Below, one piece after another: positions 1,850 through 49,528 of a stretch of 64,000 bases of DNA. This DNA is from Fibrobacterales bacterium (GTDB taxonomy: Bacteria; Fibrobacterota; Fibrobacteria; Fibrobacterales; JAOPTW01), in contig JAOPTX010000009.1 of NCBI GenBank assembly GCA_051532055.1, positions 1 through 64,000 on the forward strand, in the 5' to 3' direction. Position numbers and translations under genes: made by a program. Numbering within the stretch: position 1 is the stretch's first letter; every line of letters starts with the position of its first letter. A model generated the notes under the pieces. It was not told where the DNA came from. It saw only the letters and a program-made list of their open reading frames with translations, and ran no database searches.

Positions 1850-1964
1850 ATGTCAACAAAGGAGGTTTGATGTCACCAATTATATAGATTTTGTTCTTAT
1901 TTTATAGTAATATCAATCATTGAAGAAGTATATTAAAAGAGGCCTTTAAAAGGATGTCAACAAA
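1850..1964. promoter_or_regulatory. Candidate operator sites ATGTCAACAAA (1850-1860, 1954-1964) and ATGTCACCAA (1870-1879)
   Basis: Identical 11-mer occurs twice, one copy abutting the start codon; the same 11-mer occurs at 21780. Confidence 0.5.
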
Positions 1965-2812
1965 TGGAGTCTAGGAGTAGAGAGAAGGATATATTTGAAT
2001 TTCTTGATTATCAAGAATATCTGAGCTATGTCTACAAAACTCGTAAAAAGGATAAAACCTATTTTACCTATCGCTATATCGCAGGAAAAGTTGGCATCGA
2101 CCATAGTCTGGTTGCTCGAATATTTCAGGGCAAACGACATATTTCAAATAAGAGTATTTGTGCATTCAGTGAGGTATTGAATTTTAGTGAGGAAGAAGCA
2201 GAATATTTCTTTCATTTAGTTAATTACTGTAAATCTGAAAAGCCAGAAGTGATTGAAAAACACTTTGAAAAAATGATGGCTCTTCAGCCTTTTAAAGCGC
2301 AGCTTATTCAAGAATCAGAGTATAAGCTCTTCAAGAATTGGTATGTACAGGCGATACATGCGCTTTTAGAATTTTTCCCTTTTAACGATGATTATCGATC
2401 CCTTGCCCTTAAATTAAGCCCTCAAGTGTCGCTGGCACAGGCTGAAGAAGCTATTACTATTCTTAAAAGCTTAAAATTTATAGAGCGAGATGATGCAGGT
2501 AATTGGCGACCTATTCATGCGGGCTTAACATCAGGTGATCGCTGGAAAAGTGCCGCTATTCATGCATATCATAAAGAAGTTCTTACTATGGCTGCGAATT
2601 CGCTCGAACTTCATAAAAAAAATCAACGTGACTTTTCTTCACTGACTATATCTATTCCTTCTGATTCTATACCTAAAATTAAAGAGGTATTAAAGCAGAC
2701 CCGTGAAAGTATCATTCAAATTTTGGGGGAAAAACCGCCTGAACAAAGTAATGCAGTGTATCAGGTTGCACTTAATCTGTTCCCTATGAGTCGAATAGAG
2801 GAGATCCGTTAG
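1964..2812 (+). CDS. TIGR02147/DUF4423-family HTH protein (cassette 1)
   Basis: IFEFLDYxEYL N-terminus, XRE-like HTH (YRYIAGKVGIDHSLVARIFQGKR), WY..AI segment, C-terminal RDFSSLT...VYQ..LNLFP. Confidence 0.85.
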   Translation: MESRSREKDIFEFLDYQEYLSYVYKTRKKDKTYFTYRYIAGKVGIDHSLVARIFQGKRHISNKSICAFSEVLNFSEEEAEYFFHLVNYCKSEKPEVIEKHFEKMMALQPFKAQLIQESEYKLFKNWYVQAIHALLEFFPFNDDYRSLALKLSPQVSLAQAEEAITILKSLKFIERDDAGNWRPIHAGLTSGDRWKSAAIHAYHKEVLTMAANSLELHKKNQRDFSSLTISIPSDSIPKIKEVLKQTRESIIQILGEKPPEQSNAVYQVALNLFPMSRIEEIR

Positions 2813-2813
2813 T

Positions 2814-17940: not shown

Positions 17941-18789
17941 ATGAGGGACGAAACTACTGAAAAAAATATCTATGAATTTCTGGATTACCGGGAGTTTCTA
18001 CGCTATGTATACGAATTGCGTAATCAAACATCACAATCATTCACCTATCGCTCCATTGCTCAAAAGCTTAATATGCATCATAGCTTGGTTGCCAGGATTT
18101 TTAGGGGTGAGCGCCATATTTCTGATAAAAGTATTCATGAGTTTGCAAAAGTAATTGGCCTTAAAAAGTTGAAAAGAGACTATTTCTCCCTACTGGTAAC
18201 CTATGGTAAATCTGACAAGCCAGAGGTTATTAAAGAGTGTTTTGAAAAAATGATGCATTTAAAACCGGTTAAAGTGATGGTAGTCCAGGACTCCGAATAT
18301 CGACTCTTTAAAAACTGGTATTCGCAAGCGATTCATGGAGTGCTCGAGTTTTTTCCATTTTCTGGAGATTATAGAGCGCTCAGTCAAAAATTAAGCCCCG
18401 CAATCACGATTTCTGAAGCCAAGGAAGGGATTGAGGTTCTTAAAAATCTTAATTTTATTGCAGAGGATGACGATGGGAATTGGCGACCTGTTAATGCTCA
18501 CCTGACTTCTGGTGATCGGTGGAAATCTGCGGCGATTCATTCGTACCACAAAGAAATTCTTGCACTTGCTTCAAATTCACTTGATATTCATAGAAAAGAT
18601 CAGAGAGATTTTTCATCACTTACCATTTCAATGGATTCAGAAGATGTTCCGGTAATTAAAGAAATTTTGAAAAAGACTCGTGATACTATTGTAAAAACAG
18701 TTGGGAGAAAGGATGCAGATAAAAGTGATTCTGTTTTTCAGCTCGCTCTCAATTTTTTCCCTATGAGCCGTTTGGAGGTGAAAAGATGA
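17941..18789 (+). CDS. TIGR02147/DUF4423-family HTH protein (cassette 2), close paralog of 1964-2812
   Basis: Shares HSLVARIF, LFKNWY, GNWRP..A.LTSGDRWKSAAIH and QRDFSSLTIS with cassette 1. Confidence 0.85.
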   Translation: MRDETTEKNIYEFLDYREFLRYVYELRNQTSQSFTYRSIAQKLNMHHSLVARIFRGERHISDKSIHEFAKVIGLKKLKRDYFSLLVTYGKSDKPEVIKECFEKMMHLKPVKVMVVQDSEYRLFKNWYSQAIHGVLEFFPFSGDYRALSQKLSPAITISEAKEGIEVLKNLNFIAEDDDGNWRPVNAHLTSGDRWKSAAIHSYHKEILALASNSLDIHRKDQRDFSSLTISMDSEDVPVIKEILKKTRDTIVKTVGRKDADKSDSVFQLALNFFPMSRLEVKR

Positions 18790-25218: not shown

Positions 25219-26058
25219 ATGGACACACCGAACATTTTTAGCTATCGAAATTATCGAGAGTATTTAAAAGAGTATCATGCTTTTCGAAAAAGCATTGATA
25301 AAGCTTTTTCTCATCGGTCGTTTGCAAAAAAAGCAGGGTATAGTTCATCGGGTTTTTACTCCAATGTTGTTCATGGCGTGCACAACCTTACAAAACGCTA
25401 TATCCCTTTGTTCATAAATGGTCTTGAGCTCCTAGGTGATGATGCGCTTTACTTTGAATTGATGGTACATTATACTCACGCTGATTCGCCACAGAGTAAA
25501 CAGATCTACTTGGAGCAGATGATTGACTTAATGCCAAAGACGGTTAAAATGCTCAAACAGAACCAGAGTGCCTTTTATGAAACATGGTATCATGCGGTTG
25601 TATTGGCGGCTCTAACCATCATTGATATTGTTGATGAGTACCAAGAACTTGCTCAATTTATTAATCCTCCAATTAAAAAATTAGAAGCCAAGCGTTCTCT
25701 TCTACTGCTTAAAGAATTAAAGCTTATTGATAAGGATGACCAGGGGTTTTATAAGCCTGTTGATCAGAAGCTCTTTGGTGGTGAGGAGGTTGGAGTGTTT
25801 AAAATTCATCAGTTTCAATCGCAAATGATGACTCGTGCAATGCAGGCACAGGAGATGTTTACACCAAAAGAACGGTATATTACTACAAAAACTATTTCTG
25901 CTTCGAAAGATGGATTAGAACGAATAAAAAAAATGGCTCACTCTTTCGCACTAGAGGTTGATAGAATATCTCATGCTGATGTTAATTCTGATCAGGTGCT
26001 TCAGCTTAATGTACAGTGTTTTCCATTGACCCAAAGCCGAGAGGGGTATGATGAATAG
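25219..26058 (+). CDS. TIGR02147/DUF4423-family HTH protein (cassette 3)
   Basis: IFSYRNYREYL, FSHRSFAKKAGYSSSG, WYH and QLNVQCFPL motifs. Confidence 0.85.
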   Translation: MDTPNIFSYRNYREYLKEYHAFRKSIDKAFSHRSFAKKAGYSSSGFYSNVVHGVHNLTKRYIPLFINGLELLGDDALYFELMVHYTHADSPQSKQIYLEQMIDLMPKTVKMLKQNQSAFYETWYHAVVLAALTIIDIVDEYQELAQFINPPIKKLEAKRSLLLLKELKLIDKDDQGFYKPVDQKLFGGEEVGVFKIHQFQSQMMTRAMQAQEMFTPKERYITTKTISASKDGLERIKKMAHSFALEVDRISHADVNSDQVLQLNVQCFPLTQSREGYDE

Positions 26059-27466
26059 GTGTTTATTTAATTTGTTGATTGTATCATTTATCATTTTAAT
26101 AATTACTGGGTGCTCAAACTCAGACGACTCTTCAACAGGAATAACAATAGATACAGGTAATGTTATTACTGCAGAAATAGAGAATGCTGATGGCTCTATT
26201 CCTGATTCTGTTCAATTGCGAATAGTGCCCTTGGATAGTCTTAATGATTTTAGTCGGCCTGTAGGTGATGTGCTTGTAGCTATAACAGGAGAAGCGGATC
26301 TCGAGGTGTCTTTGGAGGCGCTTTCAGATAGTGATCGATATTTTGTCGAATTTATTTCCTTGGGTAGTGCTGCTTCACATAATTCTACAATTGAAGAGGG
26401 GGACCCCGATTGGGAGCCCGCTAAAGGCTTATGGATACGAGGGGCGACGAAGAAAGAAATTTCTATGATATTACAGAGGCCAATCTATTTGACAGAAATG
26501 CAAACGTTGCAAGGAGTAGTGGATACTGAAGTAGTTCAATCTCCTAAAAAAGTTAGAATTGTGCATACAGATATTATAGCGGATGTCGATGAAGATGGAT
26601 ATTATGAGTTTACACAAGTCCCTCGAGGGAGCTATACGTTGCTCTTTTTGGGTAGCTCTGATGATGAAGAAAATGATTGGTACTCATTGGATACGGTAGT
26701 GAGTGTAGGTCTGAGTGAAGATGTGCTCAGTAGTTCACAAGTGGTACGTGGCCCTAAGAATTTGAGTAGTTCTGATGAAATGCCCTCAAGTCGTAGTACT
26801 GAGAATGAAGTGAGTCAGAGTTCTTCTTCTTCTAATGGTTCAATGAGTAGTAGTGAATTTAATGACCGAGAAAGTATCTCGAGTAGCAGTGTTGGTCTTT
26901 CAAGTGAAGAGGTTGCGGTCAGTAGCAGTCAAAGTGATGGTACCGAAAGTGGGTTAGGTATAGTTTTATCTTCTTCAGAAATGTACTCATCTGAAAGAGT
27001 AGATTATTCATCATCATCATTTGATGGGGAAAGTATTGGAGATGGTGAGTACTCTTCAGCAGTGGGGCACAGTAGTAGTGAGTCGATTGATTTTACCGAT
27101 AGTTTAGATCTTTCTCATGTATTGCCACGAGGGACATATATAGGCCCTTGGCGTAATCCTTATGGTGAATTTGAACAAGACCCCTATCCAGAGTCACTTT
27201 ACATAGGTGTTAATACTCAATTTTTATTGCAGCTCGATCAGAATGGTGAGCCTTGGCTTAAGCTATATGGGAAGTGGAGTCAGATAGGAAATACGATACA
27301 CGTACTTTATTCTGAATGTCACCACATTATTTCTTCCATTCCTTTGAATGAAGAAATTGTTAATTGTCCTGACTGGATTAATGATTATAACCGTTTTTTA
27401 TGGAAAGATGGTAAGCTTTTTTTGGTTAGTGGAATGACACTACAGCAATGGGTGTTTATTGAATAA
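26048..27466 (+). CDS. Lipoprotein partner of cassette 3 with long Ser-rich linker and small C-terminal beta domain
   Basis: Lipobox IITG-C; GITIDTGN; DEDGYYEFTQVPRGSYTL; overlaps the upstream stop. Confidence 0.75.
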   Translation: MMNRCLFNLLIVSFIILIITGCSNSDDSSTGITIDTGNVITAEIENADGSIPDSVQLRIVPLDSLNDFSRPVGDVLVAITGEADLEVSLEALSDSDRYFVEFISLGSAASHNSTIEEGDPDWEPAKGLWIRGATKKEISMILQRPIYLTEMQTLQGVVDTEVVQSPKKVRIVHTDIIADVDEDGYYEFTQVPRGSYTLLFLGSSDDEENDWYSLDTVVSVGLSEDVLSSSQVVRGPKNLSSSDEMPSSRSTENEVSQSSSSSNGSMSSSEFNDRESISSSSVGLSSEEVAVSSSQSDGTESGLGIVLSSSEMYSSERVDYSSSSFDGESIGDGEYSSAVGHSSSESIDFTDSLDLSHVLPRGTYIGPWRNPYGEFEQDPYPESLYIGVNTQFLLQLDQNGEPWLKLYGKWSQIGNTIHVLYSECHHIISSIPLNEEIVNCPDWINDYNRFLWKDGKLFLVSGMTLQQWVFIE

Positions 27467-30032: not shown

Positions 30033-30080
30033 TAATTTTTTTATTCACTTCTTGAGATGTGCCTATGAAGATTAAAAGTA

Positions 30081-31907
30081 TTACTTCAGAGCCTGAATAG
30101 ATGTAGTTGATTCTGTAGGGAAGTTGTCTGGCTTGGTATAGGTTACAGTGGCGGTCGCAGCCCACTCAGTCCCTCTTATAAATGACGTTTGAAGTCCGAC
30201 ACAATCCATCACAATACTTGTAGTACTGTTGTCCCCAATATGGCCGTAGTTGCCGTTGTAGATGCGTGCTGTTCCATGGGATACTATCCAGTCAAAAGGG
30301 GCTAATTGTTTGCTGGTGGTGTCTTGAGCAAGAGAGAGTATTTCCATGTTGAGGAGAGGGCCCCTGAGATCGCGATCAAGAGTGTCAATGGTGTGAAGCC
30401 ACGTTGGCGGGAGATCTGCAACAATTGGGTGTGTTGAGTGTGTGATGATTTTAGTCGTGCTGGTAAGTTGCTCTGAAGGTTGGCTTGTGTTGGTTGGGAG
30501 TGTATCAAAAGATAGGTCCTGATTAATACTTATGCCAGGAAATGACCCAATAGGGTTTTTACCGAGCCCCATAATTTCTTGCATAACTGTCCATTGGCCG
30601 TGAACATTTCTTCCTGACTGAGGTATTACCACACCGCCACCATTGGATAGATAGCTTTCAAAAGCACTTTGCATAGATTGAGACCAAGGGTTTGTAAGGT
30701 TGTTTGTGCTCCAGTTACTCGCAAAATTTAAAATAACAACATCATAAGTATTAAAGGGGATTGACCAACTATCCCATATTGATGCAGTTACCCCCGGAAT
30801 AGGTGAGGTCGCTACGTCAATAGTAAAGCGTTTGGTTGATTCGAGAATGAGTTTGTAGTAATCGGTAGTCAGTTCCCAATTGTGATCATTAATGCCGTCT
30901 ATTATAACTGCTTTTATCAGAAAAGGTATTGAAACCTCAAGTTTGTTTCGCCCATCAGTAATCAGAGATGATCGAATGACGGTGTCTCGTGTTGGATTGC
31001 TACTCACGGCAGTTAGGGTAAGGGTGTCATGGGGGAGGTTGCTAAAGGTGTATCGTTGTCCATTTGAGACTTGTTGTTGTAATCCATTACTCAAGCTAAT
31101 GGTAATTAATTCTGAATCAGATTGTGGGGCAGATACAATGCCTGTAATTACACTCAGGGAGTCGGGCGTAGGAATTACCGGAGCTATTGTATCTTCTCCT
31201 GAATTCGGCTCGTCTTGTATTGTGTCTGTTGGGTTTAAAGAAAGTGATTGAAAGTACAATGTGGCTGTAGTAATGCTGTCGGCATACACAGTGATATTTG
31301 AGGTGTCTTTAGGGTTGGTACCTATGGTGGGACTTGTCATCCGTATAGTGTATGTACCAAAGGGCAGATTCATAAAAGTGAAAGTGTTAAAGGCTGTGTC
31401 TACAGTGGTAGAATACTGTGTGCCAAGGAGTTGTATTGTTAATGGTACCTTGGGGGAGTCAATAAATGAAATCATGCCAAGGAGTGATCCTGTTGGGCGC
31501 GTGAGGAGTGACTGTGTTAGAGTGATAGGGCTTTGGTCGGGTTTGTGTAAGGTGTGCTGTACCGCGAAGCTATCTGATGTGGTGGCTACAATAAGGAATG
31601 AGCCAGTGTCGCTGGTATTAAATGAAAATTCACCTCTATCATTAGTAGTGTCAATTAATGGGTAGGTGATGCTTGAAGCTACTTTCGCTGCATTTTGCTG
31701 AGCGCCATTGTATGGGGTAGGTGATAGTGTGACAACTGCAGATACAGCAAGGGTACTATCTGGTAGTGTGATGGTTCCGGCGATACTATTGGGTATTTCG
31801 GTTCCGCCAGCCCCCCCTGCAAGAGAATCAGAAACTGAGCAGTTTAAAAGAGTGAGTACACAGAAGATGGAAATTAAGGAATAGAGAAAAAGTGAATGTT
31901 TAAGCAT
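30081..31907 (-). CDS. Lipoprotein partner of cassette 4 with C-terminal ThuA-like (class I GATase-like) domain
   Basis: Start at ATG 31907 (GGAGGA RBS); lipobox LLN-C; GGTEIPN; IIDG.N.HNW...LRGP..NM...GH...RGTEWAAT...PDNFPT. Confidence 0.75.
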   Translation of the reverse strand: MLKHSLFLYSLISIFCVLTLLNCSVSDSLAGGAGGTEIPNSIAGTITLPDSTLAVSAVVTLSPTPYNGAQQNAAKVASSITYPLIDTTNDRGEFSFNTSDTGSFLIVATTSDSFAVQHTLHKPDQSPITLTQSLLTRPTGSLLGMISFIDSPKVPLTIQLLGTQYSTTVDTAFNTFTFMNLPFGTYTIRMTSPTIGTNPKDTSNITVYADSITTATLYFQSLSLNPTDTIQDEPNSGEDTIAPVIPTPDSLSVITGIVSAPQSDSELITISLSNGLQQQVSNGQRYTFSNLPHDTLTLTAVSSNPTRDTVIRSSLITDGRNKLEVSIPFLIKAVIIDGINDHNWELTTDYYKLILESTKRFTIDVATSPIPGVTASIWDSWSIPFNTYDVVILNFASNWSTNNLTNPWSQSMQSAFESYLSNGGGVVIPQSGRNVHGQWTVMQEIMGLGKNPIGSFPGISINQDLSFDTLPTNTSQPSEQLTSTTKIITHSTHPIVADLPPTWLHTIDTLDRDLRGPLLNMEILSLAQDTTSKQLAPFDWIVSHGTARIYNGNYGHIGDNSTTSIVMDCVGLQTSFIRGTEWAATATVTYTKPDNFPTESTTSIQALK

Positions 31908-32733
31908 CAAATCCTCCATCAAGCTTTTTGGTTAATGGAAAGAGTTGTAGATTGAGTTGGATAACTCTATTGGGGTGTTGTTCTTGGCGTGCTAATTCAA
32001 GAAATTCTTGGCGGAGTTCTGCAAGTTTTTGAGAATAGGTTTCGAGTAATGTATCCGAGCAAGTCAACGTAACCGATGATATATCGCGTTCATTTCGAGA
32101 CACTTTTTCCAGTGCCGTTATGCCAAGTTGCATAAGGGCGTGTTGATGACTTGAGACTGCTATTGAACGCCACTCTTCCCCAAGAGTAATTGTTTGAGGA
32201 AGATGTTTAAATACTCCGTCTTTCCCTTGTGTTATAAAACCAAGGCGGAGGAGTAGAGCGATTGCCTCTTTGGCTTCGGTGGGTGATATTTTTGGAAGTA
32301 AGCTGTGTCCAAGTTCTTTATAGTTGTCGGATACAGGAGTAATGGCAATTATTTCACGAATAGCAGGGATGTACCACTCTTTAAAATAGGCATATTGATC
32401 AGGGGTCACTGTTGTGATGCAACTCCGTTTATGGGATACTATTTTTTTAAAGTATTGAGCTTTTAGATCGTGAGTCTTTGCTTGATCATAGTTTACGAGA
32501 AGTAAAAAATATGCGGCTTCATTTTTGTCATGCTCAAATACTTTCGAAAATTGCTTGGTGAGGGCGGGGGTTATGTTTCTTTTTCCGCTGAGTACCCATG
32601 AAAAAAATCCGGTTGATTTTAGTCCTGCTAATTCAGAAATAGTGGCATGAGTAAAGCGCTTGTCCTTTGACTTGCGTTTAAGGTAGGCGTCTTTTAAATA
32701 GCGCCTATATTGAATGTACTCAAATACTTGCAT
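31900..32733 (-). CDS. TIGR02147/DUF4423-family HTH protein (cassette 4)
   Basis: VFEYIQYRRYLKD, AGLKSTGFFSWVLSGKRN, WYIPAIRE, ERDISSVT and QLNLQLFPL motifs. Confidence 0.87.
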   Translation of the reverse strand: MQVFEYIQYRRYLKDAYLKRKSKDKRFTHATISELAGLKSTGFFSWVLSGKRNITPALTKQFSKVFEHDKNEAAYFLLLVNYDQAKTHDLKAQYFKKIVSHKRSCITTVTPDQYAYFKEWYIPAIREIIAITPVSDNYKELGHSLLPKISPTEAKEAIALLLRLGFITQGKDGVFKHLPQTITLGEEWRSIAVSSHQHALMQLGITALEKVSRNERDISSVTLTCSDTLLETYSQKLAELRQEFLELARQEQHPNRVIQLNLQLFPLTKKLDGGFDA

Positions 32734-34914: not shown

Positions 34915-35460
34915 ATGGGCCAGCGATTTACAGAAATTTCTGATGAGCACTCAAAATTTATTAAGGAACAAATGCTGTTCTTTGTTGCGACAGCAATGCA
35001 TGATGGTCGCGTTAATCTTTCACCCAAAGGCATGGATTCATTTAAAGTTCTCGGTTCGAATCGAGTAGTTTGGCTCAATGTGACAGGGAGTGGAAATGAA
35101 ACAGCTACTCATGTACAGCATGACTCTCGTATGACCATAATGTTCACGTCATTTACTCAACAACCACTCATACTGCGACTGTATGGTGCCGCAAAAGTCG
35201 TTCACTCTTATGATGAGGAGTGGAAAGAGTATATTGAATATTTTCCAAAAACAGCGGGGAGTCGTCAAGTATTTGATGTTACCATTGACCTCGTTCAAGC
35301 TTCATGTGGTATGTCAATCCCCTTTTATGAATATCAAAACGAACGAACTTTGTTAACAGAGTGGGCTGAGGGTAAGGGTGAGGATGGCATGAACCAATAT
35401 AGGAATGAAAAGAACCAAGTGAGCCTTGATGGACATGAGACTCATGTAATAAAAAAATAA
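34915..35460 (+). CDS. Pyridoxamine 5'-phosphate oxidase-family FMN-binding protein
   Basis: FFVATA, VNLSPKG, TGSGNET, RMTIMF..F...P.ILRLYG and SCG motifs. Confidence 0.9.
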   Translation: MGQRFTEISDEHSKFIKEQMLFFVATAMHDGRVNLSPKGMDSFKVLGSNRVVWLNVTGSGNETATHVQHDSRMTIMFTSFTQQPLILRLYGAAKVVHSYDEEWKEYIEYFPKTAGSRQVFDVTIDLVQASCGMSIPFYEYQNERTLLTEWAEGKGEDGMNQYRNEKNQVSLDGHETHVIKK

Positions 35461-35488
35461 GTAACCGGTAGGGGTGCCTACCGGTTAC
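35461..35488. terminator. Hairpin between convergent genes
   Basis: GTAACCGGTAGG-GGTG-CCTACCGGTTAC, perfect 12-bp stem. Confidence 0.7.
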
Positions 35489-35498
35489 CGTTACGGTA

Positions 35499-38185: not shown

Positions 38186-41100
38186 ATGATGCTTCTTGGG
38201 ATTGATGTTGGGTCAACGACGGTTAAAATTTCACTAGTTGAGGGAACGGTTGAGCGGTTTTCTTACTATATGCGTCACAATGCTCAACAACGAGAAGCTG
38301 TCTGTACTTTGCTTGAGATGGTGCAGGAAAAATATCCTGGTATTACACCTGCTATTTCTTTTTGTGGGAGTGGGGGACACGGTTTTGCAGAAGAAATTAG
38401 GGTGCCGTATACCCAAGAAGTCGTTGCAAATGCAGTGGCTATAAAGGCACGATATCCTCAAATTCGCACCGCAATTGAGTTAGGTGGGCAGGATGCTAAG
38501 GTGGTATTGTTTGCTGTTGACCCTCAGAGTGGCCAGTTGGTAACTCAAGATATGCGTATGAATGGTTCATGTGCAGGAGGCACAGGGGCTTTTATTGATC
38601 AAATTGCTGAGCTACTCAGTGTACCTGTCGAAGAGATGAATGGATTGGCAGAGCAAGGAACTCAAGTGTATGAAGTCTCTGGGCGTTGTGGGGTTTTTGC
38701 AAAAACGGATATTCAACCGCTCCTAAATCAAGGGGTCCCTAAAACAGATATTGCGCTTTCTGCCTTTCATGCTATTGCGAAGCAGACTATTGGAGGATTA
38801 GCTCAGGGAATAGATCTCGCACCTCCGATTATTTTTGAAGGGGGTCCTCTTACCTTTAATGCTGAATTGAGAAAAGTTTTTTGTGAAAGACTTAAGGTGA
38901 CTCCTGAGGATGCTTTACTTCCAGAAAATGCTCATTGCATTATTGCGTATGGTGCCGCGCGCTCACTCGATCATGCTGTAGAGATTGATTCCCATGAAAT
39001 TACGCCTATTGTGAATACACTTCGTTCAGGGTGTAATAAGAAGGGATCAAATGAAGAAGGGATGTCGCCATATTTTGAAAATGAGCGTGAGCGGGAGGAA
39101 TTTACCGTATTTCATACCAATGAGACCTCTGATTTTGATGAAACTAATTGGAAGGGAAGGGAATTGCCTGTCTATATTGGGCTCGATGCAGGGTCGACGA
39201 CATCTAAGGTAGTGGTGCTTTCAAACAAAGGTTCAGTGGTAGATTCGTTCTATGCAAGTAATGATGGGGAACCCCTTGAGGTTATTACTCGTGGACTTAT
39301 GAGTTTAAGAGATCGTTTCCGGAAAAAAGAAATTGGCTTAAAAATACTGGGCCTCGGCACCACTGGTTATGGTGAAGAACTTTTTGCCAAGGCCTTTAAC
39401 GCTGACTTTCATACGGTAGAGACGGTCGCCCATGCGGAGGCTGCTAAAAGTATCTGTCCGGAGGTCTCATTTATTCTGGATATTGGTGGCCAGGATATGA
39501 AGGCGATGTTTCTTAGGAATGGTGTCATTACTAATATTATACTCAATGAAGCATGTTCAGCAGGGTGCGGTTCTTTTTTAGAAACCTATGCTCAGTCTAT
39601 GGGGATTGCCGTACAGGATGTTGCGGAAATGGCTTTTGAATCAAGGAGTCCATCGAAGCTTGGATCACGCTGTACCGTTTTTATGAATAGCTCTGTTATC
39701 ACAGAACAGAAAAATGGGAAGAGCCCCGAAGATATAATGGCGGGTCTTTGTCGTTCGGTAATAGAAAATGTATTTACTAAAGTTGTGCGTATCTCAAACC
39801 TAAAAGAGATGGGAGGTCACATAGTAGTACAAGGGGGGACTTTTAAAAATGATGCGGTACTCAGGGCGTTTGAAGAACATCTAGGGCTTACAGTGATTCG
39901 CCCTAAACATCCAGGACTCATGGGGGCTATAGGAGTGGCGCTCTTAGCAAAAAAAGAAATGGAACGCAGTGGTGCATCTTCAACGTCGATGCGCTTGGAT
40001 GCACTTGAGCGTTTTACTTATACCAAGCAAGCAGGGCAGGTGTGCCGGCTCTGCTCTAATTTGTGTAATAGAACAGTAGTTTCGTTTTCGGATAGCGCTC
40101 ATTTCGTAACGGGTAATAAATGTGAGAAAGGTAAAATTATTGGTGATGCTGCATCGAGTGAGACTCGCGCACAGGTAGCGGAACTCAATAGTACTATAAA
40201 GGCTATTCCAGATCTAGTGCGCTTTCATGGGAGCTGTATTACAGCAGACTATGGCGTAGAGAAAGTCGCTGATGATAAAAAGGTAACTATTGGTATTCCG
40301 CGCGTACTCGACTTTTGGCAGACACTTCCGTTCTGGAAAGCCTTATTTACATCTCTGGGATACACAGTCGTTGTGTCAGATAAAAGTTCTCATGCGCTCT
40401 TTGAATCTGGCCTTTCTACCATACCTTCTGACACCATCTGTTATCCGGCAAAACTGGTTCATGGACATATTCAAAATTTGGTTGAGAAAAATGTTGACCG
40501 TGTTTTTTTACCCATGATGATCAGTAGAAGAAATTTTGAGGAAACAGAAGCGGGGACAGCGGTATGCCCTGTTGTACAGGGGTATGCCCTTGTAATCGAT
40601 TCGTGCTCTGAGATTACAGAAAAGCATGGAATCCGCTTTGATTATCCTGTCTTAGATCTAAAAAACCCTGAGATAATGCAAAAACAGATCGTTAAGTTTT
40701 TAGATGCCTTTTATACGATTCCCAAAAAAGAGGCTGTGGCTGCTTTTAAAGTTGCAGAGCAGTGCCAGTTTAAGTCAATTAAGCGATTACAGGACAAAGG
40801 GAGATCAGTAGTGGCTGACCTTAAGGATGATGAGTTTGCGATTGTTCTTGCGGGAAGGCCCTATCAGTATGATCCTATGGTGAATCACTTTTTGAGTCAA
40901 CATTTTATTGCCCAAGGTATTCCTGTGGTGACATTGGATGCTATTGATCATACTCAATACTCTATTGAAAATAGTAGAGTGGAACTTACAAATTCTACAC
41001 ACTCGAAGCTCTTGTCTGCAACATTGGCGGTGGCGAATAACCCTAAATTAGAGCTTTGTCAGATTGTAAGCTTTGGATGTGGCCACGACGCGATCCTGAG

Positions 41101-42523
41101 TGATGAGATGAATCGAATTATGAGTGAACACTCGGATAAATCAGTGTTACAGCTCAAACTTGATGAAGGAGATGTCAAAGGGCCAGTGTCGATTCGGGTA
41201 CGTTCCTTTATCGAGACCGTGCGAAAAAAACGCGGAACCAGTATCAGTCAGCCAAGGCGTGCAGTACTTTCTGATCCGTATCCAGTAAAATTTACTAAAG
41301 AGGATGCAAAGAAAAGAAAGGTATTGGTTCCTAATCTTTCTCCATCTTTTTCGCGAGTAGTTGCTTCGATATTTAAAAATCAAGGAATTGAGATGGAAGC
41401 TCTTCCCGTGGCTACTCCAGCGGCAATTGCGTTAGGTAAAAAATATGTAAATAATGATATTTGTTATCCCGCTCAAATAAATATTGGAGAGATGCTCGAG
41501 TATCTCGAAACTAATGATTGTGAGAGTAGTGAGATCGCTTTGGGATTGGCTAAGAACTGTGATAACTGCCGTGCGGGGCAGTATGCTGCACTTGCGCGTC
41601 AGGCACTCGACGATGCGGGGTATAGTGATATCCCTATTATGACAACCGGTGATGATAAAAAAAATATGCACCCGGGATTTAAAAGTAATATGGCAATTCA
41701 GATTCGTATGGTCTGGGGTATCGCGCTTATTGATTGCCTTGAAATAATGGTGCGACGTATGAGGCCGTATGAAATACATAAGGGAGAAGTTGATCGCGTA
41801 TATACAGAGCAGCTTGCATTGGTGTGTGCTGGTTTTGAGGTCTCAATAGATGAGGCGCTAAAGCGATTTAAAGTATGTGTCACTGCCTTTAATGAGATCG
41901 GAGTAGATGCTACAAAACGAAAACCTCAAGTGGGACTGCTTGGTGAAATTTTCGTTAAATATCATCCAGCTGCCAATGCTTTTATTGAACGGTATTTAGA
42001 GTCTCATGGTATGGAAGTTATTCAACCGCCAATGCTTGATTTCTTTAGACGAGATGATATCATTCGAAAGTATAAACGGAAAAATGGTATGATGCAGCGG
42101 CCGTTTATGGCGCTCCTTGTAGGGACGGTGTCTGAAGCAGTGTATGCTAAGGCAACTAAAAAAATCAATAACATATTTAAGTCATTTAAATTGTATGAGC
42201 ATCATGCTGATGTGTATGAACTTCATGAGCACGTAAATGGTTTTATTGATACCGCTTTTAAAGTGGGCGAAGGTTGGCTTATTGCGGGTGAACTTTTTGA
42301 TCTTGCAAAGCGGGGAGTAAATAGCTTTGTTATAGTGCAGCCATTCGGGTGTATGCCAAACCATGTGAGTGGTAGAGGTATGACAAAGGTATTTAAGAAG
42401 GAGTTTCCTCATATACAAGTGTTGAGTCTTGATTATGATCCTGATACGAGTATGGCAAATGTTGAAAATCGATTACAGATGTTGGTTATGCGGGCTCGTG
42501 AGCAGCAAACTGAAGTAGGCTGA
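38186..42523 (+). CDS. 2-hydroxyacyl-CoA dehydratase activator-like fusion (two BcrAD/BadFG ASKHA ATPase domains plus DUF2229-like domains)
   Basis: Two G.D.GSTT.K motifs; GGQD.K; MNGSCAGGTG and LNEACSAGCG; C.VF; ICYPAK; SFGCG; QPFGCMPNH. Confidence 0.9.
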   Translation: MMLLGIDVGSTTVKISLVEGTVERFSYYMRHNAQQREAVCTLLEMVQEKYPGITPAISFCGSGGHGFAEEIRVPYTQEVVANAVAIKARYPQIRTAIELGGQDAKVVLFAVDPQSGQLVTQDMRMNGSCAGGTGAFIDQIAELLSVPVEEMNGLAEQGTQVYEVSGRCGVFAKTDIQPLLNQGVPKTDIALSAFHAIAKQTIGGLAQGIDLAPPIIFEGGPLTFNAELRKVFCERLKVTPEDALLPENAHCIIAYGAARSLDHAVEIDSHEITPIVNTLRSGCNKKGSNEEGMSPYFENEREREEFTVFHTNETSDFDETNWKGRELPVYIGLDAGSTTSKVVVLSNKGSVVDSFYASNDGEPLEVITRGLMSLRDRFRKKEIGLKILGLGTTGYGEELFAKAFNADFHTVETVAHAEAAKSICPEVSFILDIGGQDMKAMFLRNGVITNIILNEACSAGCGSFLETYAQSMGIAVQDVAEMAFESRSPSKLGSRCTVFMNSSVITEQKNGKSPEDIMAGLCRSVIENVFTKVVRISNLKEMGGHIVVQGGTFKNDAVLRAFEEHLGLTVIRPKHPGLMGAIGVALLAKKEMERSGASSTSMRLDALERFTYTKQAGQVCRLCSNLCNRTVVSFSDSAHFVTGNKCEKGKIIGDAASSETRAQVAELNSTIKAIPDLVRFHGSCITADYGVEKVADDKKVTIGIPRVLDFWQTLPFWKALFTSLGYTVVVSDKSSHALFESGLSTIPSDTICYPAKLVHGHIQNLVEKNVDRVFLPMMISRRNFEETEAGTAVCPVVQGYALVIDSCSEITEKHGIRFDYPVLDLKNPEIMQKQIVKFLDAFYTIPKKEAVAAFKVAEQCQFKSIKRLQDKGRSVVADLKDDEFAIVLAGRPYQYDPMVNHFLSQHFIAQGIPVVTLDAIDHTQYSIENSRVELTNSTHSKLLSATLAVANNPKLELCQIVSFGCGHDAILSDEMNRIMSEHSDKSVLQLKLDEGDVKGPVSIRVRSFIETVRKKRGTSISQPRRAVLSDPYPVKFTKEDAKKRKVLVPNLSPSFSRVVASIFKNQGIEMEALPVATPAAIALGKKYVNNDICYPAQINIGEMLEYLETNDCESSEIALGLAKNCDNCRAGQYAALARQALDDAGYSDIPIMTTGDDKKNMHPGFKSNMAIQIRMVWGIALIDCLEIMVRRMRPYEIHKGEVDRVYTEQLALVCAGFEVSIDEALKRFKVCVTAFNEIGVDATKRKPQVGLLGEIFVKYHPAANAFIERYLESHGMEVIQPPMLDFFRRDDIIRKYKRKNGMMQRPFMALLVGTVSEAVYAKATKKINNIFKSFKLYEHHADVYELHEHVNGFIDTAFKVGEGWLIAGELFDLAKRGVNSFVIVQPFGCMPNHVSGRGMTKVFKKEFPHIQVLSLDYDPDTSMANVENRLQMLVMRAREQQTEVG

Positions 42524-43453: not shown

Positions 43454-43484
43454 TTGTGCTTATTAATAGGGTATTTGTGCTTAT
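43454..43484. promoter_or_regulatory. Direct repeat TTGTGCTTAT x2 (21-bp period) in a divergent promoter region
   Basis: Copies at 43454-43463 and 43475-43484. Confidence 0.5.
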
Positions 43485-43538: not shown

Positions 43539-44381
43539 ATGGATTATGTGAATATATTTGATTATACCGATTATCGGCTTTTTCTAAAAGAGTATCATAC
43601 GCTTCGAAAAGAGAGTGACTCTCGGTTTTCCCATCGTTTTTTTGCTCAAAAGGCCGGATATTCATCAACAGGGTATTACTCTAATGTGGTGAAGGGTGTT
43701 TTGAATCTCACAAAAAAATATATACCCAAGTTTATCCATGCTCTTGGTCTTGAAGGTAAAGAGGCTGACTATTTTAAATTGATGATTCAGTATAGTCATG
43801 AAATGATTCCTGCAGAACGCCAGATTGTCTATGAACAGATGATTGCATTAATGCCTCCAAAGGCTCAGCGTATGAAATTGTCTCAAAAAAGTTTTTATCA
43901 ATGTTGGTATACAAGTGCGGTACTTATTGCTCTTGATATCCTTGACTTTGAAGATGATTATAAAGAGTTGAGCGATTTCATTAATCCTCCTATAAAAGTG
44001 ATAGAGGCCAAAAAGTGTGTTGCGCTTCTTAAAGAACTTGGCTTGATTGTACAAGATGGAAATGGGTTTTGGAAACAAACCAATGCTAAAATTGTAGGTG
44101 GTGAAGAGGTGGGGGTACATACAATCCATCAATATCAATCTCAATTTATGGAGATGGCGTCAGAAGCACAGGCACGATACGCCCCGAAAGATAGGTTTAT
44201 ATCTACGAAAACTATTTCCACGTCCAAAAGAGGACTTGAGCGTATTAAACAGTCAGTTCGAGAACTGTATGTTAATATTGACTCTATTGTGTTAGCTGAA
44301 TCAGAAGCGAGCCAAGTCTATCAATGTAATATTCAATTTTTTCCGATTACAAAGGATAAACATGATGAAAGTTATTCTTAA
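43539..44381 (+). CDS. TIGR02147/DUF4423-family HTH protein (cassette 5), close paralog of cassette 3
   Basis: FSHRFFAQKAGYSSTG, FINPPIK..EAK, GGEEVGV and VYQCNIQFFP motifs. Confidence 0.87.
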   Translation: MDYVNIFDYTDYRLFLKEYHTLRKESDSRFSHRFFAQKAGYSSTGYYSNVVKGVLNLTKKYIPKFIHALGLEGKEADYFKLMIQYSHEMIPAERQIVYEQMIALMPPKAQRMKLSQKSFYQCWYTSAVLIALDILDFEDDYKELSDFINPPIKVIEAKKCVALLKELGLIVQDGNGFWKQTNAKIVGGEEVGVHTIHQYQSQFMEMASEAQARYAPKDRFISTKTISTSKRGLERIKQSVRELYVNIDSIVLAESEASQVYQCNIQFFPITKDKHDESYS

Positions 44382-45525
44382 TTATTGTGTCGTATGTGTA
44401 GCGCTGTTTTTTGGGGCATGTTCTCTTTCAGAGGAGGGGATACAAGATCAGTCCGGGACGACTCTTGAAACTGATAATGTCATTATGGCGAAGGTTGCCT
44501 ATCATGATGGGGTACCCGCAGGTAATGCTTCGGTAGAGCTGACAGAATGGATTGATAATGGAATATTTATACCTGATAGTATTACGACCATAAAAACATC
44601 AAGTTTTAGTGCGAATAGTGACGGTGAGTTCTCTCTTGATTCTTTAGAACCGGGTGTAGAATATTTTATTGAGTTAATAAGTGATGACGATAGTCGCCCG
44701 GAGAGAGAGTGGCTACAGAAAATATCAGTTGATGCGCTGAAGAAGCGGGGTGTTGTACAGCTTAAGAAAGAGCGCATCATGCGTTTTAATCTAGATAAGG
44801 CGGGTGATGATCAAGCATGGTTTGGGATTCAAGGAACGTCTAAATTTTATCCACTTGGATCGGGGGTTACTCATGTACAGGCCCCGAGCTCTGATTATTC
44901 GTTTGTTGTTGTATCGAACCCTACGGTTTTGGATGGTGACACTCGCTACACTATTACAGAAGATGACAATTATACCAAAGTTGATGAGTACCATTATGAA
45001 AGTTCTAGTCATAGTGAAAGTTCCGAAGAAGAATGGTCATCTGAAGAGTCGGAAGAGGAATCAAGTGAAGGCGAAGAATTGGGAACTGATAGTTCAAGTG
45101 ATACATCAGAAGATGTGGGTGGATTATATAGCGATAATGAGTATGAAGACTCATCTTCTGATAATGATCAACTCATGAATGATGATGTGTATGTTGAGTG
45201 TGTCTTTGGTGGAAGCGAGTATGAGTGTAGCGCTGATGTTTCTCCTACTAAAATAGAATGTGAATCCCTTGGTGATGATTTTGATTGTGAGAAATTATTT
45301 GAAGATCTGTCTCATTACCGTGATGTTTGGAAAAAAAATACTTGGGAGAATAGTAGCGATTTTGATGGAATGGTTCTCTGTTTTACTGCAGGAGATCCTG
45401 TTGCATGTGATACCGCTGCTATTGATCACGTGCTCTGTTTTGATTCAGAATCCTATTATATCGAATGTGATAACTTTGAAGATGAAAGTATTGTTATTCT
45501 TCTCGGGATACATCAAAAATACTGA
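44362..45525 (+). CDS. Lipoprotein partner of cassette 5 with acidic linker and Cys-repeat C-terminus
   Basis: Lipobox FFGA-C; GTTLETDN; four C-x8-C pairs at the C-terminus; overlaps the upstream stop. Confidence 0.75.
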   Translation: MMKVILNYCVVCVALFFGACSLSEEGIQDQSGTTLETDNVIMAKVAYHDGVPAGNASVELTEWIDNGIFIPDSITTIKTSSFSANSDGEFSLDSLEPGVEYFIELISDDDSRPEREWLQKISVDALKKRGVVQLKKERIMRFNLDKAGDDQAWFGIQGTSKFYPLGSGVTHVQAPSSDYSFVVVSNPTVLDGDTRYTITEDDNYTKVDEYHYESSSHSESSEEEWSSEESEEESSEGEELGTDSSSDTSEDVGGLYSDNEYEDSSSDNDQLMNDDVYVECVFGGSEYECSADVSPTKIECESLGDDFDCEKLFEDLSHYRDVWKKNTWENSSDFDGMVLCFTAGDPVACDTAAIDHVLCFDSESYYIECDNFEDESIVILLGIHQKY

Positions 45526-47239: not shown

Positions 47240-47290
47240 TATAATATATGGCTGCACGGATTGTGCAGCTCATTTTAAAGTGAGTAATGT

Positions 47291-48157
47291 ATGAGTGATA
47301 GTGTGAACATTTTTCAATATACTGATTATCGCCTCTTTTTAAAGGATGCGATACAGGCGCGTAAAAGCATTGATAAAAAGTTTTCTCAACGGTTTATTCA
47401 TCAAAAACTTGGTATTAAGTCAACAGGGTGGTTGGCTGATATACTTGGAGGGAGGAAAAAAATATCTCGTTCCAATTTAATTACTCTTGCTGGGCTTCTT
47501 AGTGTTGGCCCCCGTGAGGAACTGTATCTTCAAACACTCGTTGATTATAATCATTCCAAGACTGTTGAAGATAAAAATAGAAATTATGCTAAGCTCCTAA
47601 CCTTTCAAGAAGTTCCCAAAGATATTATAGGCAAGGATCGGTTTGAGTATTTCTCAAAGTGGCACTATGCTGCCATTCGAGAATATCTTTTTATTGAACC
47701 ATTTAATGGCAATTACACTACCCTTGCAAAAGCAATTATTCCTGAAATTACAGTGAACGAAGCAAAAATGGCAATTGTCCTTCTTGAGGACCTTGGGATG
47801 ATAAAGCGATATGCTGGTGGCATTTTTAAACCTGCTGTGGAGCATGTTAAAAAGCAAGGTGATTCTTTTGCTCCCGTCTATTACTACAACTATCTGAAAG
47901 CACAGATGGAGCTCGGTATTGGGTCTATGGAGCGGATCCCAAAAGAGGAACGTGATATTTCGGCTATTTCGGCGACCCTCAGCGAAGAGGCTTTTAAAGA
48001 GATTGCTGAAGATATAAAAGTCATTCGAAAAAAAATAGTTCGCCTTTCAGAAGAAGAAAATGGTAAATTTTGGAACTCGGTGGATGGTGACTCTAGAAGA
48101 GTGTACCAAGGTGTATTTGAACTATTTCCGGTCTCTAAAGTGAAAGGGGGGCGTTAG
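47291..48157 (+). CDS. TIGR02147/DUF4423-family HTH protein (cassette 6)
   Basis: IFQYTDYRLFLKD, FSQRFI...GIKSTG, WHYAAIRE, ERDISAIS and VYQ..FELFP motifs. Confidence 0.87.
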   Translation: MSDSVNIFQYTDYRLFLKDAIQARKSIDKKFSQRFIHQKLGIKSTGWLADILGGRKKISRSNLITLAGLLSVGPREELYLQTLVDYNHSKTVEDKNRNYAKLLTFQEVPKDIIGKDRFEYFSKWHYAAIREYLFIEPFNGNYTTLAKAIIPEITVNEAKMAIVLLEDLGMIKRYAGGIFKPAVEHVKKQGDSFAPVYYYNYLKAQMELGIGSMERIPKEERDISAISATLSEEAFKEIAEDIKVIRKKIVRLSEEENGKFWNSVDGDSRRVYQGVFELFPVSKVKGGR

Positions 48158-49528
48158 ATGTATTTGCTATTATTATGTATGCTATGCTTAGTTGTTGGAT
48201 GTACTCGTTCAGAAACTATAGCGAGTACCGAAGTGGAAAATGAAATTGCGGTTAAGATTTCGGGAAGTGCTGCCACAGGCTATGCTATTGAAGATGCTGA
48301 CTGGATAATTCAGAGTGAATCGGGTGATACGCTCGCAACAGGAACAACTGATAGTATTGGCTCGATTATCCACGCCTTTGAAGAGGGGGAAGTGAGAGAA
48401 GATGCGCGCTTAATTATTACAGTGGATAATGGAGAGAAGTACAGAGGAATCTCATTTGAAGAGGGGACTCACCGGTATCCAGTTATATCACCGCTTTCTG
48501 AATATTTTACTGAGTCATTTGTGAAAATATCTCAATCGGGGTCTGCATTTATTGTTCCCAAAATTGATTCATTACACAAGTTAGAGAAAGAGATGCATGT
48601 AATGCTGTATGGAGTGGATAGTGGGATGGTTTTGAGAGATAGTACTTTCAAGCCTGCTCGAAAAGGAATGAGAGAAGGCGAGCCCTCAGAATTGGATCTG
48701 TTCATTCACTCGGTAACAGAGATAAGTAATGGGACGTCGGGTGGACGAGATTCACTTTTTGAAGTACATAGATATGATGATGGTAAAGGGCCACTCGTTC
48801 AAAATAGAGATATGCAACGTCAGTATGCTCAAACAGTATCACTTTTTGAAATACCTGATGATAAAAAAGAGCTCTACTTTAAATCTTTTGATTACGGTGA
48901 TCAGAAAAGCAACGTTGGTCAATTTGGCGCTGTTATGGATATGGTTAGAACAAGCAAGTTCCTTGAAAAATATAACGGCCATCCTGTGAGGCGTGAGGTA
49001 GAAGCGGTTTATTTAGAGACTGTTAATAGTACCGTTTCTGTTATTGATAACAATCGAGAAATGGTAGCTGATGGAGAGTATTGGTTGCATCTTGGGCATA
49101 TTGTAAACGTAGCTATGCAGCCGATACACAAAGACCTTGAGTTAATTGTTGTTGAAGAGTTGTCTGCTATACAATGGAATGCTATAGAGTTATATGGACG
49201 GTTACTTGGCATACAGGTTGGTAGAATGATAGAGGCGTTAACCTTTGCTCCTCTTAAAGCCAATCCTGATAGCGTTGACTTTCTGGTACATACCCTGGTT
49301 GTTGATCTCGTTCTCAATTCTTTTGATATCCATGAATATCTTGCTTCTGATTTTCAGAAGTATCGTGATGATCATGTGAATAAACCGAGCGATTTCGATA
49401 TAAAAGAAGCTCTTGAAAGAATTAAAAATGATGAACGCCTTGGGCCTGGATCTGGACCTGGGCCTGGACCTAGTCCAAATGGTGGCACTCCACAAAATGG
49501 TGCTATGCACGAGATGGCTCCAGAGTAA
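48158..49528 (+). CDS. Lipoprotein partner of cassette 6
   Basis: Lipobox LVVG-C; STEVEN; ATG directly follows the upstream TAG; GPG repeat tail. Confidence 0.75.
   Translation: MYLLLLCMLCLVVGCTRSETIASTEVENEIAVKISGSAATGYAIEDADWIIQSESGDTLATGTTDSIGSIIHAFEEGEVREDARLIITVDNGEKYRGISFEEGTHRYPVISPLSEYFTESFVKISQSGSAFIVPKIDSLHKLEKEMHVMLYGVDSGMVLRDSTFKPARKGMREGEPSELDLFIHSVTEISNGTSGGRDSLFEVHRYDDGKGPLVQNRDMQRQYAQTVSLFEIPDDKKELYFKSFDYGDQKSNVGQFGAVMDMVRTSKFLEKYNGHPVRREVEAVYLETVNSTVSVIDNNREMVADGEYWLHLGHIVNVAMQPIHKDLELIVVEELSAIQWNAIELYGRLLGIQVGRMIEALTFAPLKANPDSVDFLVHTLVVDLVLNSFDIHEYLASDFQKYRDDHVNKPSDFDIKEALERIKNDERLGPGSGPGPGPSPNGGTPQNGAMHEMAPE

Follow-up and report, generated by a model that had tools for sequence, protein, structure and literature searches.

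The 64,000-nucleotide stretch of a Fibrobacterales genome analysed here, hereafter the window (contig JAOPTX010000009.1, positions 1 to 64,000), contains six copies of a two-gene cassette, in which a regulator gene of the TIGR02147/DUF4423 family, R, is directly followed by a gene for a lipoprotein, P. The cassettes are numbered 1 to 6 and listed in Table 1. The six paralogues of 277-288 amino acids described in the initial annotation were found again as open reading frames (ORFs) of the same position and size, and their TIGR02147-like identity was confirmed by a hidden Markov model scan: NCBIfam TIGR02147 is matched by each of them over practically the whole model (positions 2-3 to 271-272 of 272; 206.9-270.7 bits, curated cut-off 50 bits), and all six exceed the gathering score of Pfam DUF4423 (PF14394; 71.4-117.5 bits, gathering score 30 bits). 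The XRE-type helix-turn-helix (HTH) also assigned to these proteins is supported by a fold match in the model of R4, but not by Pfam HTH_3, which stays below its cut-off of 23 bits in R1 (19.9 bits) and R2 (22.2 bits) and has no match in R3-R6.

The close junctions with the lipoprotein gene hold in all six cases, with gaps and overlaps as annotated: both genes lie on the same strand, from a 1-nt gap to a 23-nt overlap apart. P1 starts 1 nt after R1, P2 overlaps R2 by ATGA (-4), P3 and P5 start at -11 and -20 relative to the ends of R3 and R5, P4 starts at -23 if TTG is used, or at -8 from the ATG at 31907, and in cassette 6 the TAG of R6 is directly followed by ATG. All six partners feature a hydrophobic leader ending in a lipobox Cys, as recognized by a simple rule, and P1-P5 carry, 9-20 residues after the Cys, a short conserved peptide, hereafter the tag; the lipobox and shared peptide reported for the first five partners were thus both recovered, the lipobox extending to the sixth. 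A candidate seventh cassette, at 57309/58108, was discarded, being composed, by family scan, of an SDR followed by a sulfatase-type enzyme, and so unrelated.

Table 1. Position of the cassette genes and of associated features within the window
Feature	Position	Strand	Description
R1	1964..2812	+	282 aa; TIGR02147 227 bits
P1	2814..4184	+	tag GTFIETTN 2898-2921; CarboxypepD_reg-like sandwich; Ser-rich linker; LamG head; profile E 1.6e-5
R2	17941..18789	+	282 aa; TIGR02147 227.9 bits; closest paralogue of R1
P2	18786..20108	+	tag GTTIETTN 18870-18893; sandwich domains; linker; LamG head; profile E 2.6e-5
R3	25219..26058	+	279 aa; TIGR02147 251.8 bits
P3	26048..27466	+	tag GITIDTGN 26138-26161; long Ser-rich linker; small C-terminal domain; profile E 0.0028
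R4	31900..32733	-	277 aa; TIGR02147 270.7 bits; protein used for modelling
P4	30081..31922 (likely ATG 31907)	-	tag AGGTEIPN 31788-31811; transthyretin-like sandwich; profile E 1.5e-6
R5	43539..44381	+	280 aa; TIGR02147 261.1 bits
P5	44362..45525	+	tag GTTLETDN 44455-44478; acidic Ser/Glu linker; Cys-rich C-terminus; profile E 4.3e-7
R6	47291..48157	+	288 aa; TIGR02147 206.9 bits; most divergent of the six
P6	48158..49528	+	degenerate tag IASTEVEN 48218-48241; body without family match
Candidate operator words, R1	GATGTCAAC 1849-1857; GATGTCACC 1869-1877; GATGTCAAC 1953-1961	+	repeats
Candidate operator words, R2	TGTCGACA 17846-17853; TGTCGATA 17932-17939	+	TATATT at -37
Candidate operator direct repeat, R5	TTGTGCTTAT 43454-43463 and 43475-43484	+	21 nt start to start
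Terminator-like hairpin before R6	47250-47271		GGCTGCAC-GGATT-GTGCAGCTC, then T run
RNA-library contig	25996..26445		bridges R3 stop and P3 start

Conservation of the gene pair and predicted fold of the regulator

The search was extended to the whole 5.17-Mb assembly, made of 181 contigs, where the window is contig C9. TIGR02147 matches amount to 52, 50 of which above the cut-off, and none was found in 14 control genomes. For the 49 R genes with a 3' end inside a contig, a partner was defined as a same-strand ORF starting -80 to +15 nt of the R stop: it is present in 42 instances, with an ATGA overlap in 14 of these pairs (first-start rule) and a lipobox Cys, by the simple rule, in 41 of the 42 partners, the exception being a protein of 77 residues described below. 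The partnerless TIGR02147 genes lie at C8:78548, C47:19397 and C3:187936, and on C56, C23, C123 and, as a truncated copy, C22.

In other Fibrobacterota genomes, a downstream lipoprotein carrying the tag was found at all 30 fetched loci, representing only about 3 orthologue groups. Alignment of family members from outside this phylum led to 80 Myxococcota-type loci, 74 of which could be assessed by a strict test, requiring a lipobox Cys followed, within 14 residues, by G/S/V/A-T-E-T/S-G/D-N-P. The test was passed by 62 loci, with an ATGA-overlap start in 45 of them and a single residue between Cys and tag in 37, and the 12 misses are mostly near-variants of the tag, such as PTETGNP or GTEVGNP. 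Pairing of R and P is the rule across two phyla and not a local accident.

The family is large: 140 of the 151 genomes sampled in the phylum carry it, with up to about 70 candidates in one genome, and 21,215 representative clusters were found at E <=0.001, 7,203 at 1e-30. Almost all of the best 150 representatives (148) are 270-374 residues long; the other two, P0144 and P0225, of about 597 residues and with two matched stretches each, may be tandem fusions of two regulators. Database entries describe TIGR02147 ('Fsuc_second')/DUF4423 as no more than a family of paralogues without a known function. In full-text literature, the search for its names listed only Bd3700, a DUF4423 protein up-regulated during growth of Bdellovibrio in prey; no paper describing its fixed partner, tag or upstream repeats was found by literature search. 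Anti-phage defence models from PADLOC recognized no family among three R and five P proteins (E <=0.001).

The AlphaFold model of R4, obtained from 60 family sequences, has a mean predicted local distance difference test score (pLDDT) of 87.8. Residues 7-90 align to XRE-type domains (3pxp, Z 8.8; HigA antitoxins, 8.3-8.4; DdrO, 7.8) and residues 109-183 to winged helices of the ArsR, PadR, HxlR and MarR types (Z 8-8.8), while residues 189-250 are modelled as two long helices. Foldseek produced only weak matches, the best being a PadR-like protein of unknown function (E 0.012). As Z-scores of 8-9 fall in the range that the comparison tool calls common for such folds, they are taken here to name the fold class and no more. 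No membrane-spanning segment was found in R, no 19-residue window exceeding a hydropathy of 1.6 in any of the 49 R proteins, and a C-terminal F-P motif is nearly invariant (F265 invariant, P266 at least 90%). Taken with the repeated words found upstream of the genes, the modelled XRE-type HTH and winged helix and the missing hydrophobic segment agree with the annotated cytoplasmic DNA-binding type of protein, which is what R looks like.

The partner lipoproteins and their tag

CarboxypepD_reg and LamG domains were confirmed by Pfam in P1 and P2. The other C-terminal domains assigned to the partners fared unevenly: the Cys-rich C-terminus of P5 is visible in the translation, as are the Ser/Glu-rich linkers; the ThuA-like part of P4 falls just under threshold (33.3 against 33.4 bits); and P3, P5 and P6 have no Pfam match. 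An NCBIfam scan of the six partners gave nothing above E 0.029, and for P6 the best ESM Atlas score, 0.87, is below the meaningful level. Similarity of P2 residues 270-371 to the receptor-binding domain of clostridial neurotoxins was dismissed as sub-threshold noise (E 0.0077, 16.4/23.8 bits), the same stretch matching LamG.

The first 115 mature residues of P4, modelled with AlphaFold from 43 sequences, reach a pLDDT of 80.9. Residues 1-18, from the anchor Cys to the tag, are predicted at a confidence of 52-66 and without secondary structure, and residues 19-111 as a confident seven-stranded sandwich, resembling the transthyretin-like domains of carboxypeptidase D, the SlaB S-layer stalk and teneurin (E 7e-5 to 2e-4). 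The tag stretch has no fold in this model, and therefore appears to be a linear motif on a tether and not part of a fold. Behind the tag, CarboxypepD_reg was recognized in 15 of 20 other partners from the genome, and LamG heads, found in 2 of the 6 window partners, recur in 3 of these 20. Other heads were found once each (LRR, a DUF1565 beta-helix, Fib_succ_major, DUF2341 and ThuA-like), many having no match, and the 20 Myxococcota partners scanned include three serpins, one DUF3160, one Ig-like domain and two weak CarboxypepD_reg matches, with 13 unmatched. The predicted layout of P is a lipid anchor, a flexible tether with the tag, a transthyretin-like stalk, a linker and a variable head. 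Two large LamG proteins like the partner heads are encoded at 10754-14257 and 28140-30032, one of them also having an InlB B-repeat and a ricin-type lectin domain; neither has a TIGR02147 gene in front nor a match to the tag profile. Lipoproteins with carboxypeptidase-regulatory-like domains are listed by a proteomic study of the F. succinogenes envelope (PMC6851124).

Within this genome the mature N-terminus of the partners follows the pattern C-S-[LV]-S-[DE]-[DE]...G-x-T-x-E-T-x-N, and in Myxococcota C-x-GTETGNP. An N-terminal profile built from the genome partners scores in P1-P5 and not in P6, which resembles the tag by eye only (STEVEN). Downstream of the R gene at 54793-55593 of C49 (minus strand), a partner of only 77 residues has a membrane-anchor-like leader without a lipobox Cys, and keeps the tag-like peptide GGSITGNEITA. 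Several synonymous codons are used at every tag position (in Myxococcota GAG 35 and GAA 13 times, AAC 25 and AAT 23 times, and all four Pro codons). Because synonymous codons vary freely at every position, the tag is considered to be read as protein; conservation as DNA, in the form of an operator or of a recombination site, was rejected on the same ground.

Among 19,113 open segments of the genome, the profile of the mature N-terminus, trained on the partners themselves, selects 39 ORFs at E <=0.021. Of these, 33 lie directly behind an R gene and one is adjacent to an R fragment at the edge of a contig, while the other five are orphans with no R upstream, located, in oriented coordinates, at C156:919, C18:2382 (minus), C4:43788, C95:14111 (minus) and C42:18489 (minus). 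The 18.5 Mb of two complete Myxococcota chromosomes contain 3 exact copies of the GTETGNP-coding pattern, always 60-100 nt downstream of R and on the same strand, against no occurrence of the reversed control pattern. A 32-position tag profile found no match in 5 genomes of the phylum devoid of R (two genera, 91-98% complete), and matched 5 of 5 R-bearing genomes of the same two families and 4 of 5 R-bearing genomes of another family, a comparison based on a small sample of related genomes. The tag is almost private to R partners, and is specific to the module rather than a general lipoprotein signal. No relevant report on the peptide was found in the literature.

Residues next to the anchor also set the partners apart from other predicted lipoproteins, within the limits of the crude predictor used to define the latter: Ser is found at +2 in 73% of genome partners and 22% of the others, and for an acidic residue at +4 to +7 the figures are 98% and 49%; Asp or Glu occupies +5 in 59% of partners and +6 in 44%. 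The pattern is reminiscent of the lipoprotein export signal (LES) of Bacteroidota, in which a polar residue precedes two or more acidic ones at +2 to +6, K-(D/E)2, SDDDD and SDDFE being sequences reported for it in a study in which position matters (PMC5080379). LES-bearing surface lipoproteins of Bacteroidota, with their polysaccharide-utilisation loci, share with P the anchor, polar and then acidic residues, modular binding heads and a locus-specific regulator. However, the acidic patch is here shifted by about 2 residues, the T-E-T-x-N/GTETGNP tag has no counterpart, no SusC/SusD pair is present and the regulator belongs to another family; moreover, Myxococcota partners carry the tag directly after the Cys, without an acidic patch.

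How R and P are inherited was evaluated in 40 R-P pairs of this genome. Similarity between R proteins correlates with that between their partners over mature residues 1-110 (Mantel r 0.31, p <=0.0005), and only weakly with that over the remainder of P (r 0.15, p 0.036); in 14 of 40 cases R and the N-terminal part of P have the same closest paralogue, and in several paralogue pairs an R similarity of 0.5-0.6 goes with a body similarity of 0.02-0.05. The annotated interchangeability of the C-terminal domains is in line with these figures. They show a conserved chassis with exchanged heads, which amounts to co-inheritance and is no proof that R and P interact. Pairing might be nothing but the duplication of an ancestral unit, R regulating other genes. 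Joint inheritance of R with the 5' part of P would fit, as would the existence of both orphan regulators and orphan tagged lipoproteins; yet pairing and overlap have been kept in two phyla while heads were replaced many times, the tag is under protein-level constraint, and candidate operator sites, described below, lie at the cassette's own promoter. We consider this explanation highly improbable.

A further alternative would give the tag a more direct role. RNPP regulators (Rgg/SHP, PlcR/PapR, ComR/ComS) are associated with adjacent secreted peptides and have a C-terminal TPR domain that binds peptides; similarly, R is an XRE-type HTH protein of about 280 residues, encoded beside a gene for an exported product with a conserved peptide. 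In contrast, the C-terminal half of R is predicted to combine a winged helix with a helical hairpin, P is a large lipoprotein and the hosts are of the Gram-negative type. RNPP-like peptide sensing by R is not favoured, no TPR regulator being found among the listed Foldseek and VIA structural matches. In a looser version of the same idea, R would sense its own unexported partner, for example the tag of the precursor, or a released processing fragment, so that expression of the operon would follow the flux, or the jamming, of lipoprotein export. Translational coupling would make R and P together, the tag is exclusive to R partners and sits in a flexible segment, as would suit a peptide ligand, and the winged helix of R could bind protein rather than DNA. 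Against this stand the fold of R, different from the XRE-plus-TPR architecture of known peptide-sensing regulators, and tags too alike between paralogues to act as R-specific signals. Feedback of this kind is, in our judgement, very improbable.

Repeated words upstream of the regulator genes, RNA cover and surroundings

Short repeated words precede three of the six R genes (Table 1). Upstream of R1, the second GATGTCAAC copy ends 2 nt ahead of the ATG, and TATATT is found at -35; the word ATGTCAAC has 93 occurrences in the genome, and its only cluster (at least 2 within 150 nt) lies upstream of R1. The words found upstream of R2 match those of cassette 1 in their position relative to the gene, and differ from them in one core base. 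TTGTGCTTAT occurs 6 times in the genome, and clusters only upstream of R5.

The analysis was then carried out over 47 usable R upstream regions and 1711 control regions. In a test made post hoc, the same GT-NNN-C word is found at least twice within 180 nt in 14 of the 47 R upstreams and in 104 of the 1711 controls (Fisher p about 9e-7), this frame ranking first among the 64 of the same form. Exact direct pairs of 9-mers are found in 7 of 47 regions against 70 of 1711, with spacings of 15, 21, 21, 31, 32, 35 and 51 nt; enrichment is only weak for 9-mers repeated at least three times with one mismatch (8 of 47 against 26 of 400). The cassette's own promoter is the sole genome cluster for 6 of 10 non-palindromic words examined, counts for palindromic words being confounded, and in no case was the word of a paralogue seen at the promoter of another cassette. 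In Fibrobacter orthologues, footprints such as GTGTTC[CT]C, in 3-5 copies, or a TGT[GA]GAC pair are kept, and the sequence between them varies.

In Myxococcota the words take the form of a perfect inverted repeat, GTNNNC-N4-6-GNNNAC, located 19-95 nt before the estimated R start; it was found at 31 of 78 loci and in 32 of 2308 control windows taken from these loci (p about 5e-32). With one mismatch allowed, the figures become 47 of 78 and 241 of 2308. Half-sites are mainly GTATAC (14), followed by GTATCC (6), GTATTC (6) and GTTTAC (3).

The word of one paralogue, located on C30, is found elsewhere too. Its 9-mer core, CGTAGCCTA, has 11 genome occurrences, ten of which form five pairs with a 31-nt spacing and unrelated spacers (C30:41493-41533, C30:43630-43670, C31:57995, C39:16699 and C42:53192). 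One pair lies in its own promoter and another precedes a 196-residue gene just after the cassette; these pairs may define a small regulon. By eye, the 196-residue product resembles a LuxR/GerE-type regulator; the fifth pair, on C42, is without an obvious target gene.

From these patterns we infer that the upstream words are probably the marks of a sequence-specific factor controlling its own operon and, sometimes, a few other genes. The situation recalls the self-regulating XRE/Cro repressors, such as HigA and DdrO, which share with R the N-terminal fold and repeated sites overlapping their own promoter. R differs in its added winged helix and helical hairpin and in its downstream gene, which encodes an exported lipoprotein and not a toxin or a stress protein; DNA binding by R is predicted.

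Some upstream motifs are of a more general type. TGTAAA (22 observed, 6.9 expected) and TATAT (55 observed, 27 expected) are enriched upstream of R genome-wide, and TATATT is located 12-37 nt ahead of the start in R1, R2, R4 and R5; they look like promoter elements, and may reflect a shared promoter type. R6 begins 51 nt after the end of the preceding gene (47239), behind a terminator-like hairpin (Table 1). A simple terminator scan returned a hairpin only after P6, and is uninformative for the other cassettes.

Of the words sampled from the cassette 2 region, 56% are present in an RNA library made from the sample whose DNA data best contain the sequence. RNA and DNA contig depth was examined over 17500-37400, in 30 bins. 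RNA-library contigs cover R2, P2, R3 and P3, one of them running across the R3-P3 junction, and RNA depth is zero in 6 of the 30 bins, one covering most of R4, against a flat DNA depth of about 540; contigs of this kind cannot prove a single transcript or rank genes, DNA carry-over is possible and holes in coverage are uninformative.

The number of cassettes and the diversity of their words may suggest that they encode alternative surface lipoproteins, the regulators cross-repressing one another so that only some are made. Locus-specific regulators are known from the capsule loci of Bacteroides, where the logic is comparable. Such variation of the surface coat would suit a genome with about 50 cassettes and exchangeable heads, operator words that differ between paralogues, uneven RNA cover (cassettes 2 and 3 covered, R4 in a zero-depth bin) and the sites of one paralogue also preceding another regulator gene. 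However, most of the non-palindromic words cluster only at their own promoter, none being seen at other cassettes, and contig depth cannot rank expression, so that we regard cross-repression as improbable.

The surroundings of the cassettes are mixed, including GH8, GH3, GH2-like, GGDEF, HDOD, response regulator, ribonucleotide reductase, CotH-type kinase and other genes, and no third gene is common to the neighbourhoods of the six window cassettes. Rfam and tRNA scans of the window found nothing. A 1445-residue ORF, at 38186-42523, is composed of two BadF/BadG/BcrA/BcrD ATPase stretches and a DUF2229 CoA-enzyme-activase domain. GC skew is positive in every 4-kb bin of 1-64000 (0.13-0.25), whatever the strand of the genes, and G+C is 38-43%.

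Possible function of the cassette

We give about an even chance to a reading in which the cassette is a self-regulated two-gene operon, coding for a paralogue-specific transcription factor and a modular, tagged envelope lipoprotein. R would be a soluble cytoplasmic TIGR02147 transcription factor, made of an XRE-type HTH, a winged helix and a long helical hairpin, which would recognize, in its own promoter, GT-NNN-C hexamer words repeated at distances of one to a few helical turns, and thereby set the level of its own operon. Differences between paralogues in the core of the word would insulate the roughly 50 copies of the genome from one another, at least one of them seeming to have a few further targets. 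P would be translated from the same message. Its anchor would be followed by the flexible tether, a stalk of one or two transthyretin-like domains, a low-complexity linker and a variable head, which would bind or act on an extracellular target; most likely, P resides in the outer membrane or is displayed at the surface. The tag would be a linear motif, read as protein by an envelope component dedicated to the family, for sorting, export or docking, and would not serve for contact with R. The chassis, inherited as a whole, would comprise the regulator, the leader, the tag and the first stalk domain, and heads would be exchanged on it. The close junctions and the RNA-library contig running from R3 into P3 speak for one transcription unit. 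The data show the layout of the cassette, its conserved pairing, the predicted folds, the upstream repeats, a tag exclusive to the module and cover by RNA contigs; from these, DNA binding and self-regulation by R, the location of P and the role of the tag are inferred.

Several observations weigh against this reading. Seven of the 49 assessable R genes lack a partner, and five tagged lipoprotein genes lack an upstream R. Having been trained on partners, the tag profile makes partner scores circular, the informative result being the fewness of other matches. No comparable repeated words were found upstream of cassettes 3, 4 and 6; the GT-NNN-C frame was first seen by eye in the very upstream regions used for its genome test, and its exact repeat is limited to the 14 promoters given above, while the perfect inverted repeat is a rare form in this genome (3 of 47 regions, 26 of 1711 controls). 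A search for R residues co-varying with half-site variants returned only hypervariable columns, which leaves both domains of DNA-binding type as candidate readers of the sites. The commonness of the fold scores and the limits of the RNA contigs count in the same direction. Finally, a tag found only with R, and unused by other lipoproteins, is odd for a pure sorting signal; the pattern would be compatible, too, with a tag directly connected in function to the regulator.

In the initial annotation, P was a cognate extracytoplasmic sensor. According to this view, P would detect a ligand and signal to its own R through a transducer encoded elsewhere; as a variant, a shared membrane hub might read the tag outside and a conserved part of R inside. 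In its favour count the tight and ancient pairing, a tag that is specific to the module and gave no match in the R-less genomes searched, the nearly invariant F-P motif of R, which could be a docking site, and the many heads that are binding modules (LamG, LRR). A sensor role of P reporting to R is not supported, however, and no signal path across the inner membrane is apparent: family scans and neighbourhood agree with the annotated lack of a transmembrane transducer or kinase in the cassette, and no third gene is conserved beside those of the window. With one hub and one tag for all of them, about 50 paralogues would be indistinguishable, and among longer proteins no R was found fused to signalling domains, which is weak evidence. 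Heads are also too mixed for a single class of ligand sensors, ranging from LamG, LRR, DUF1565, Fib_succ_major and ThuA-like domains to serpins and DUF3160, the last two looking like effectors and not receptors. The sensor model appears unlikely; it is weakened only, because tag exclusivity and phyletic coupling leave room for a link between tag and regulator.

Two known arrangements bear on the same point. RcsF and NlpE are single-copy lipoproteins, signalling via known inner-membrane partners to two-component systems; P resembles them in having a flexible N-terminal tether, that could report on the envelope, and differs in its variable heads and in that the transducer is not known. The parallel with extracytoplasmic function (ECF) sigma/anti-sigma pairs, drawn in the initial annotation, is limited to a multi-copy, co-transcribed pair of a cytoplasmic regulator and an envelope protein, and fails on every defining feature that could be tested. 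No sigma family (sigma-70 regions 2 and 4) is found among the Pfam and NCBIfam matches of R1-R6, and no anti-sigma family among those of the partners, which have a cleavable lipoprotein leader and no membrane-spanning anti-sigma domain; R has no sigma-70 domain, and no signal route is known.

A trans-envelope circuit may nonetheless be imagined, in which a dedicated envelope component, encoded elsewhere and found only in module-bearing lineages, would read the tag and report to R, for instance via the C-terminal F-P motif, without kinase or anti-sigma in the cassette; the cell would thus adjust each surface lipoprotein to its envelope state. By itself, this circuit is quite unlikely. Taken together, all variants of the feedback and trans-envelope models have roughly one chance in four, and they stay alive because a plain sorting role does not fully explain a module-specific tag. 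The TIGR02147 family is distributed in Fibrobacterota, Myxococcota and, by source-record names, Bdellovibrio-type organisms, a range that overlaps the one reported for the Agl-Glt envelope-spanning machinery (PMC3169522); this overlap is a lead only.

Conserved pairing, tag and candidate operator words give a testable role to TIGR02147/DUF4423, a large family of unknown function. If the self-regulated operon proposed here is true, Fibrobacterota, which are important degraders of fibre, and many Myxococcota would use the cassette as a main route for building and controlling a modular set of surface proteins, and its chassis of regulator, leader, tag and stalk could serve as a display scaffold. 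Should the tag talk back to the regulator, it would represent a new way of signalling across the envelope.

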